DNA from: Escherichia coli
GTDB taxonomy: Bacteria; Pseudomonadota; Gammaproteobacteria; Enterobacterales; Enterobacteriaceae
NCBI RefSeq assembly: GCF_003334405.1
Contig: NZ_QOWM01000003.1
DNA: 64,000 bases
Strand: one strand, 5' to 3'
The notes beneath the pieces were generated by a model. It did not search any database, was not told the DNA's origin, and saw nothing but the letters and a program-made list of their open reading frames with translations. Below, one piece after another: positions 43,243 to 44,069 of this stretch. The translations under genes and the position numbers were made by a program. Each line of letters begins with the position of its first letter. Position 1 is the stretch's first letter.

Positions 43243-43989
43243 ATGGCATTACTGGAAATTTGCTGTTACAGCATGGAATGTGCACTAACGGCGCAGCAAA
43301 ACGGCGCAGACAGAGTTGAATTATGCGCAGCCCCAAAAGAGGGGGGCTTAACGCCGTCGTTGGGTGTACTGAAATCCGTGCGCCAGCGGGTGACGATCCC
43401 TGTGCATCCGATAATTCGCCCACGCGGTGGTGATTTTTGCTACAGCGACGGTGAGTTTGCCGCCATTCTTGAGGATGTGCGCACGGTCCGCGAATTAGGT
43501 TTTCCTGGACTGGTGACGGGCGTTCTCGATGTTGACGGGAATGTCGATATGCCACGAATGGAAAAAATAATGGCTGCTGCCGGTCCGCTGGCAGTGACTT
43601 TTCATCGCGCCTTCGATATGTGCGCTAACCCTTTACATACACTCAATAATCTTGCGGAATTGGGCATTGCCCGGGTACTGACATCAGGGCAAAAATCAGA
43701 CGCACTGCAAGGTTTATCAAAAATTATGGAACTTATTGCCCATCGTGATGCTCCAATCATTATGGCCGGAGCAGGAGTCCGTGCAGAAAACCTGCACCAC
43801 TTCCTCGATGCCGGAGTGCTGGAAGTCCATAGCTCCGCGGGAGCGTGGCAAGCCTCACCGATGCGTTATCGTAATCAAGGATTGTCCATGTCATCAGATG
43901 AACACGCGGACGAGTATTCGCGTTATATCGTAGACGGGGCGGCGGTTGCTGAAATGAAAGGAATCATTGAACGCCATCAGGCCAAATGA
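43243..43989 (+). CDS. cutC: copper homeostasis protein CutC (248 aa)
   Basis: Translation [31 protein letters not shown]... matches CutC. Confidence 0.93.
43728..43756 (+). promoter_or_regulatory. sigmaE-type promoter inside cutC (MicL promoter)
   Basis: -35 GGAACTT at 43728-43734 followed 16-17 nt later by CTCCA/TCCAA, close to the sigmaE -10 TCTGA/TCAAA. Confidence 0.4.
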
Positions 43990-44069
43990 TTTTTACCGTT
44001 GCATCATGTCGCCCAATATGATGCTTGCTCGTACCAGGCCCCTGCAATTTCAACAGGGGCCTTTTTTTA
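43764..44069 (+). ncRNA. micL: probable MicL (RyeF) sRNA, sigmaE-dependent, encoded within cutC 3' region
   Basis: Promoter-to-terminator distance about 306 nt, agreeing with the reported ~308-nt MicL primary transcript ending at the cutC terminator. Confidence 0.5.
44036..44069 (+). terminator. rho-independent terminator after cutC
   Basis: 9-bp stem AGGCCCCTG/CAGGGGCCT followed by TTTTTTT. Confidence 0.75.

Follow-up and report, generated by a model that had tools for sequence, protein, structure and literature searches.

The sigma-E-dependent small RNA MicL and its promoter within cutC in a 64-kb sequence of Escherichia coli

MicL (formerly RyeF), the third sigma-E-dependent small RNA (sRNA) of Escherichia coli, was first described by Guo et al. 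in 2014 (PMC4102768), and its gene, micL, is annotated in the reference E. coli genome. Like MicA and RybB, MicL has a sigma-E promoter, depends on Hfq and represses abundant outer-membrane proteins as the repressor arm of the envelope-stress response. However, MicA and RybB are free-standing intergenic genes of about 70-80 nt, with no longer precursor and with many targets (porins and others), whereas MicL lies within a protein-coding gene and undergoes processing, and lpp is the only target reported for it. MicL has been classed as an sRNA of the 3' untranslated region (UTR) with a promoter internal to the open reading frame (ORF) (PMC9438474). DapZ of Salmonella and MicX of Vibrio are of the same kind, since they have an ORF-internal promoter, share the terminator of their host gene and act in trans in an Hfq-dependent manner (PMC9438474), although they have other regulators and targets; moreover, in DapZ the promoter immediately precedes the stop codon and the transcript undergoes no further processing, while MicL transcription begins 226 nt inside the ORF and cleavage by RNase E is required. 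CpxQ, released from the cpxP 3' UTR, resembles MicL in the RNase E cut near the stop codon, the two adjacent 3' stem-loops, the binding of Hfq and the relation to envelope stress, but it has no promoter of its own (cpxP transcription depends on CpxR) and is more sensitive to rne-3071. Here the corresponding locus is described in a stretch of 64,000 nt of E. coli contig NZ_QOWM01000003.1 (hereafter the window; positions are counted from its first nucleotide), in which a sigma-E-type promoter consistent with MicL had been predicted inside the cutC gene.

It is practically certain that the element found in the window is micL and that it works by the published mechanism. The Rfam model of MicL (RF02654, gathering score 56 bits) matches positions 43761-44068 of the plus strand over its full length (model positions 1-308 of 308) with 381.9 bits and an E-value of 2.1e-115, and the annotated micL of NC_000913.3 (b4717, 1958441-1958747, minus strand, 307 nt) is 100% identical to window positions 43762-44068; the MicL geometry on which the original prediction relied was thereby confirmed, and the alignment to annotated micL that it had proposed as a check was positive. 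The primary transcript (43761-44068, plus strand, 308 nt) folds with a minimum free energy (MFE) z-score of -4.4. Its published start lies 226 nt before the stop codon, which in the window begins at 43987 (43987 - 226 = 43761), and the 5' end of the processed form MicL-S, the seed and two historical cutC alleles fit the window by the same arithmetic. The location in cutC, this start and the terminator at 44036-44068, ahead of torY (44377), are those of MicL. In host gene and strand, as well as in promoter, terminator, processing site and seed, the locus agrees with MicL/RyeF of E. coli K-12, with no functional difference between the two, and for this window MicL itself is nothing new. The distance of about 306 nt from promoter to cutC terminator that had been predicted was close to the transcript length, which is 308 nt from 43761 or 307 nt from 43762, but the predicted transcript end at 44069 was one position too far, as the RNA ends at 44068 and 44069 is the A after the T-run. 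The present analysis covers identity, coordinates, promoter geometry, constraint on wobble bases, the fold with the covariation of its hairpins, and pairing geometry; sigma-E dependence, the involvement of RNase E and Hfq, the repression of lpp and the physiology are taken from the literature.

The promoter hexamers are embedded in codons 162-172 of cutC. The -35 element GGAACTT (43728-43734, plus strand) overlaps (AT)G-GAA-CTT, encoding Met162-Glu163-Leu164, and the -10 element TCCAA (43752-43756, plus strand; consensus TCAAA) overlaps (GC)T-CCA-A(TC), encoding Ala170-Pro171-Ile172; both are present as predicted originally. They are separated by a 17-nt spacer (43735-43751, plus strand) that is hypervariable among genera, even at the amino-acid level, with most columns carrying 0.2-1.2 bits. 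Positions 43696-43727 (plus strand) correspond to the upstream portion (-65 to -34) of the minimal promoter as published, a stretch that is A/T-rich and UP-element-like (…TTATCAAAAATTAT). With the promoter in codons 162-172 and the cutC terminator shared, the locus belongs to the 3' UTR-derived sRNAs with an ORF-internal promoter (type I). Measured from the published start at 43761, the discriminator is 4 nt and the distance from -35 to +1 is 26 nt; with the RefSeq start at 43762 the values are 5 and 27 nt. The rules derived for sigma-E promoters put the spacer at 15-19 nt, preferably 16, the discriminator at 5 or 6 nt and the -35 to +1 distance at 25-28 nt, preferably 26 or 27, spacer and discriminator lengths being inversely related, so that a short discriminator offsets a long spacer; A/T elements occur near -48/-49 and -57/-58 (PMC1312014). 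The geometry of the micL promoter is within these experimentally derived ranges. The promoter was judged by geometry and wobble-base constraint, and a generic sigma-70 promoter scan was set aside as irrelevant to a sigma-E promoter. The sigma-E dependence of MicL is published on the evidence of a tiling array, Northern analysis, primer extension, a GFP fusion and a promoter mutant (PMC4102768). The sigma-E-induced transcript ending at the cutC terminator, which the original prediction called for, is thus described for E. coli, and the sequence of both promoter and RNA is identical here.

The processed, active form MicL-S corresponds to 43989-44068 (plus strand, 80 nt). RNase E cleavage creates its 5' end at the final base of the TGA stop codon, within the A/U-rich stretch AUUUUUACCG (PMC4102768; Updegrove et al. 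2019, bioRxiv 10.1101/341578). MicL-S folds at -28.8 kcal/mol (z = -5.2), none of 200 shuffled sequences folding as well, and its MFE structure consists, from 5' to 3', of a single-stranded A/U-rich end, stem-loop A, the 7-nt linker CGUACCA and a terminator hairpin with U7. Stem-loop A (43998-44028, plus strand, core helix 44001-44024) is defined by the MFE structure, covariation and published mutagenesis. The intrinsic terminator shared by cutC and micL (stem-loop B, 44036-44068, plus strand) has a 9-bp G+C-rich stem at 44036-44062 and a U7 tail at 44062-44068, which provide the hallmark of Hfq-binding sRNAs, a Rho-independent terminator with a U-run of at least six. This region forms the 3' end of the transcript and its Hfq-binding module; Hfq co-immunoprecipitation is published (PMC4102768), and stem-loops A and B position the RNase E cut (bioRxiv 10.1101/341578). 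A generic terminator scan skipped the cutC/micL terminator, probably since its 9-nt loop exceeds the 8-nt limit of that tool.

Both hairpins of MicL-S are supported by covariation. Across 45 homologous UTRs, 93.6% of the cells pair, compared with 34-58% in slid controls, a comparison biased in favour of the hairpins, since the E. coli sequence supplied the structure that was projected onto the others. Double-sided changes were found in 11 of 17 pairs overall (6 of 8 pairs of the stem-loop A core, where the changes are compensatory, and 4 of 8 of the terminator), and no value observed for these measures was reached by any of 500 shuffles. RNAalifold applied to the same 45-sequence alignment recovered the terminator, with 99.7% of cells paired, but not stem-loop A, which was therefore examined with an explicit structure.

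Only Escherichia, Salmonella and Citrobacter have the conserved block (G)AUUUUURCCG, which carries the RNase E site, at the stop codon itself (TGATTTTTACCG, window 43987-43998). In other genera it is found downstream of the stop codon, by anything from a few to over 100 nt, and the distance from stop codon to seed core ranges from 44 to 173 nt. Cleavage "at the stop codon" is therefore a lineage-specific feature, in line with the published observation that TGA is not a cleavage signal (PMC4102768).

MicL represses the translation of lpp and lowers the level of Lpp, and the published seed, UGCUCGUACCAG (MicL-S +38..+49), pairs with lpp codons 6-10 (PMC4102768). In the window the seed occupies 44026-44037 (plus strand), and the MicL-S-1 mutation (+41..44) maps to 44029-44032. 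The seed core GUACC (44031-44035), located mostly within the single-stranded linker, occurs in every detected homologue and is followed by A (44036) in at least 90% of them, GTACC being also a selection criterion for calling homologues. Seed conservation, a check proposed originally, was borne out by the GUACC(A) core in 81 of 81 fully evaluable promoter-positive loci. A search for lpp in the 64-kb window found none, and its sequence was therefore taken from other E. coli records (K-12 derivative). With this sequence the published pairing of MicL-S +23..49 with lpp +16..42 was reproduced at -25.0 kcal/mol, and the seed forms 11 pairs with lpp +16..+28, with one bulge, at -16.2 kcal/mol. Decisive for direct pairing is the published compensatory pair of MicL-S and lpp mutants (PMC4102768).

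Nothing contradicts the assignment of the locus to micL with lpp as its target, but several caveats apply. The 5' ends given for the RNA differ by 1 nt, being T43761 (308 nt) in the paper and in Rfam and A43762 (307 nt) in RefSeq. The -10 element agrees with the consensus at four of five bases, and the spacer is 17 nt instead of the preferred 16. The motif GGAACTT-N15-17-TCNAA occurs once in the 64 kb, both strands having been searched, where 0.11 occurrences are expected by chance, and at least one match arises in 10 of 100 dinucleotide-shuffled windows; thus, the motif is unique in the window yet only mildly improbable by itself, and alone it is only suggestive. As to the target, the longest perfect complement between MicL-S and lpp is only 7 nt, and the 31x31-nt duplex of the published site ranks 769 among 42,646 windows of the 64 kb (top 1.8%). 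The unconstrained RNAduplex of MicL-S with lpp (-37..+102), at -46 kcal/mol, is matched by 95 of 1000 dinucleotide shuffles and by 964 of 3196 genomic 80-mers; this calculation ignores loop cost and accessibility, gave no discrimination and was dropped as a target test. Thermodynamic complementarity alone cannot establish lpp as the target.

The frequency of the motif in shuffled windows would also fit another explanation, namely that the hexamers are a chance match within a coding sequence and that 43990-44068 is a mere 3' UTR and terminator of cutC, with no independent transcript. The Glu-Leu and Pro-Ile codons indeed provide most of the hexamer bases, and genera that lack the sRNA keep AGAACT…GCCAA at the same place. 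The bases that distinguish the two possibilities were examined in cutC loci collected with the CutC peptide P-I-I-M-A-G-A-G-V as anchor, third codon positions being left free and one genome being taken per species (120 loci); this pattern forces neither the diagnostic hexamer bases nor the 3' UTR. Over 35 genera with a MicL-S-like UTR, the unforced wobble bases that complete the hexamers are near-invariant (1.49 bits at 43728, 2.0 at 43731, 2.0 at 43752 and 1.81 at 43755), while neighbouring wobbles are free, the 29 other unforced wobble positions in 43683-43787 averaging 0.50 bits with a maximum of 1.22. The bases of GGAACT as a whole carry 1.5-2.0 bits, and genera without the UTR element encode the same amino acids (Glu-Leu … Gly-Pro-Ile) but have AGAACT or GCCAA/GCCGA at the hexamer bases. 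In addition, the hexamers co-occur perfectly by genus with the conserved 3' UTR RNA, and a chance match is hardly compatible with the identities to RF02654 and b4717. Moreover, in published experiments a PmicL(-65..+20)-GFP fusion was inducible by RpoE, and a point mutation of PmicL that preserves the CutC protein nearly abolished MicL (PMC4102768). The published fusion and promoter mutant and the wobble-site constraint already refute the chance-match explanation, whose probability is virtually nil.

The constraint on synonymous sites also indicates which part of cutC has a double role. When 31 full-length cutC genes are aligned by codon, Pro171 is CCA in 29, and its third base (43755) is, with 1.65 bits, the most constrained of 80 fourfold-degenerate sites. 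The wobble base of Gly157 (43713, corresponding to -48) is only A or T in these 31 genera, in agreement with the -48/-49 A/T element of sigma-E promoters (PMC1312014). No additional synonymous constraint was found in the 226 nt of transcribed cutC coding sequence (43761-43986), where the fourfold sites average 0.35 bits (23 sites), compared with 0.41 bits upstream of the micL promoter (53 sites). Extra constraint at synonymous sites, among the 31-35 genera compared, is therefore confined to the promoter hexamers and the upstream A/T position. It is known that MicL-S alone represses lpp and that MicL lacking its first 222 nt is still processed (PMC4102768; bioRxiv 10.1101/341578), and the absence of constraint agrees with this dispensability: dual coding is limited to the promoter, and the active regulator sits in the 3' UTR. 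The suggestion that the 3' half of cutC is dual-function DNA therefore holds for the promoter, whose wobble bases are constrained, and fails for the 226 nt of transcribed coding sequence.

The selection on the promoter wobbles across genera also implies that the internal promoter matters, a point that bears on the origin of MicL-S. Another possible source would be the yecM-cutC mRNA, from which MicL-S might mainly be processed in a promoter-less, CpxQ-type manner, with the internal sigma-E promoter playing a minor part. RNase E cleavage needs only the 3' stem-loops and no upstream sequence (bioRxiv 10.1101/341578), and Supplemental Fig. S3F of PMC4102768, as it is cited elsewhere, indicates that MicL-S can also be obtained by processing of cutC mRNA. 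Against a main role of this route, MicL and MicL-S are both strongly induced by sigma-E whereas cutC is not, and the PmicL mutant nearly abolishes MicL-S together with MicL (PMC4102768). Processing of the mRNA is thus very unlikely to be the main source, in comparison with transcription from the promoter within cutC.

The name of the host gene and the copper-sensitive cutC alleles obtained in the past may suggest that the relevant product is the CutC protein, acting in copper homeostasis, and that the RNA is incidental; human CutC, according to a citing source, binds Cu(I). The published work places the two historical alleles around the micL promoter (PMC4102768), and their positions could be recovered in the window, the old CutC numbering starting at Met103 of the full-length protein. 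K49R maps to A43694, in the AAA codon of Lys151 (-67), and R66H to G43745, part of the Arg168 codon CGT within the promoter spacer, so both fall in the promoter region. Furthermore, the phenotype of a cutC deletion is reproduced only by the PmicL mutant and not by a 5' deletion of cutC, and MicL or MicL-S supplied in trans restores copper resistance (PMC4102768). It is extremely unlikely that the protein is the relevant product and the RNA incidental, and the copper sensitivity of cutC mutants, long credited to the protein, belongs to the embedded RNA. As CutC is conserved as a protein, roles for the protein and for the RNA are not mutually exclusive.

According to the mechanism established for E. 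coli, given here with the coordinates of the window, RNA polymerase with sigma-E (RpoE) starts at about 43761 from GGAACTT-N17-TCCAA under envelope stress or at entry into stationary phase, reads through the last 226 nt of coding sequence in cutC, its stop codon and then the 3' UTR, and terminates at the intrinsic terminator of cutC, yielding the 308-nt RNA. RNase E with Hfq, guided by the two adjacent 3' stem-loops, then cuts at the stop codon and releases the 80-nt MicL-S. The single-stranded linker of MicL-S and its flank (seed 44026-44037) pair with lpp codons 6-10 and block translation, the untranslated lpp mRNA being then degraded. A lower level of Lpp, which is more abundant in the cell than any other protein, relieves envelope stress and feeds back on sigma-E (PMC4102768; bioRxiv 10.1101/341578). 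MicL can be regarded as a textbook case in which the wobble positions of a protein-coding gene spell out a promoter and a phenotype long credited to a protein belongs to an embedded RNA; what is added here is the position of the dual coding and an apparently older and wider distribution of the module.

This module, comprising the cutC-embedded sigma-E promoter, an A/U-rich (RCCG) cleavage region, stem-loop A, the single-stranded GUACCA core and the terminator, was followed in the 120 cutC loci. Promoter and MicL-S-like UTR were both present in 81 loci and both absent in 28. Five more had the UTR with a one-base variant of the promoter (four with TGAACT, from Serratia, Rouxiella (two loci) and Erwinia endophytica, and an Enterobacter with CCCAA), and the remaining loci comprised one decayed copy (Hafnia psychrotolerans), one chance GTACC in an unrelated context (Photorhabdus) and four that were incomplete and not evaluable. 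By genus, promoter and UTR occurred together in 42 and neither in nine, with no clean discordance (Fisher p = 3e-10, kinship being ignored); perhaps four or five independent clades account for the absences. Outside Enterobacteriaceae, the module was found in Erwiniaceae (Pantoea, Erwinia, Mixta), Pectobacteriaceae (Dickeya, Acerihabitans), Bruguierivoracaceae (Biostraticola) and Yersiniaceae other than Yersinia (Rahnella, Rouxiella, Serratia). In the same scan it was not found in Yersinia, Rosenbergiella, Photorhabdus, Proteus, Arsenophonus, Moellerella or the Clostridia that share the peptide motif. The distribution suggested by these sequences is wider than that stated in 2014 (PMC4102768), and the module appears to be older.

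Two of the sampled loci show further features at the 3' end of cutC. The UTR of Hafnia psychrotolerans resembles a decaying copy, with TGAACTG at the -35 position, GTCGC in place of the core GTACC and no terminator after it, and is still Rahnella-like (…TTATTGCATCGCCCTACGCAAGT…). In Serratia marcescens an IS1222-type ribosomal frameshift element (RF00383, 141.8 bits) lies at 6482-6599 (plus strand) of the locus, about 350 nt past the MicL-like terminator (end at 6135), indicating that an insertion sequence adjoins the cutC 3' end in that strain.

The distant copies score below the threshold of the existing model of the family or escape it. In a set of 20 distant cutC loci, Rfam at the gathering threshold detected Salmonella only, and RF02654 with permissive filters gave sub-threshold full-length matches in Dickeya (27 bits), Mixta (25), Erwinia (23) and Serratia (18) and none in Pantoea, Rahnella, Rouxiella or Acerihabitans. 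Distant copies are thus missed by current annotation. No report of MicL or RyeF in Pantoea, Erwinia, Serratia, Dickeya, Yersinia or Pectobacterium was found in the literature searched, which left subscription journals mostly uncovered and is weak evidence of novelty.

The target site was compared in a sample of 12 lpp loci, among which one, from Rahnella bruchi, is confirmed as belonging to the same genome as its cutC (same contig). The site CTGGTACTGGGC (codons 6-9, CTG GTA CTG GGC) is intact, wobble bases included, in all seven loci from genera positive for the module (E. coli, Candidatus Erwinia impunctatus, two Pantoea-type loci, Serratia sp. S1B, Rahnella bruchi and Rouxiella badensis). 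It is altered within the complement of the seed in all five loci from four lineages in which the module is absent or decayed: Yersinia pestis has CTT GTA, which is synonymous, the Morganellaceae have ATT GTA (Photorhabdus) and ATT GTA TTA (Morganella), and two loci of the Hafnia psychrotolerans type have ATG GTA. The seeds predicted in distant genera consist of 7-8 contiguous bp, AGUACCA(G):(C)UGGUACU, with energies of -12.7 to -25.3 kcal/mol. The comparison suggests that the sRNA and its lpp target site are retained or lost together, as a conserved sRNA-target pair would lead one to expect, the sample being small; it also lends indirect support to the published repression of lpp. On balance, it seems probable that the MicL-lpp circuit did not arise recently within just a few genera of Enterobacteriaceae, and that the module is present in at least five Enterobacterales families, with the lpp site kept or lost alongside. 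If so, the stated "recent evolution" of MicL would need a modest revision, and the loci would form a natural data set on the co-evolution of sRNAs with their targets, in which an sRNA is gained or lost together with its target site.

The host gene cutC (43243-43989, plus strand, 248 codons, stop codon TGA at 43987-43989) was identified from the ORF list and from its annotation in K-12 records; both the micL promoter and the initial 228 nt of MicL lie inside it. It is preceded by argS (40714-42447, minus strand) and yecM (42657-43229, plus strand) and followed, after a gap of 387 nt from stop to start, by torY (44377-45477, plus strand) and torZ. The order argS-yecM-cutC-torY-torZ is that of E. 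coli K-12 records, with the orientation reversed. Region 43650-44120 was found in 5425 of 5426 complete E. coli genomes and is 100% identical to that of K-12 MG1655-type records. The strain is nevertheless different from MG1655, as six single-nucleotide polymorphisms relative to NC_000913.3 were found over the surrounding 8 kb (39509-47509), at 43636 (cutC), 44462 (torY) and 46298, 46433, 47315 and 47466 (torZ). None of them falls within 43696-44068, which comprises the micL promoter and RNA, the nearest being the C/T difference at 43636. A K-12 record annotated with the Prokaryotic Genome Annotation Pipeline (PGAP) and examined in full has no micL, and the feature column of the 12 listed matches to 43650-44120 names only cutC; readers of such PGAP records would miss micL.

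Some other features were recorded in the window. An ORF of 478 codons antisense to argS (40840-42276, plus strand) is taken as a shadow ORF, with no evidence for a gene. On the minus strand, positions 29696-29773 give a full-length Rfam match to the sRNA candidate C0465 (RF00116, 111.6 bits, gathering score 40), and positions 48004-48046, just past the 3' end of torZ and on the strand opposite to it, match ES036/CssrF (RF02751, 45.5 bits, gathering score 37.6). A cluster of tRNA genes for Gly(GCC), Cys(GCA) and Leu(TAA), detected by both Rfam and ARAGORN at 11173-11475 (plus strand), is presumably the glyW-cysT-leuZ arrangement of E. coli.

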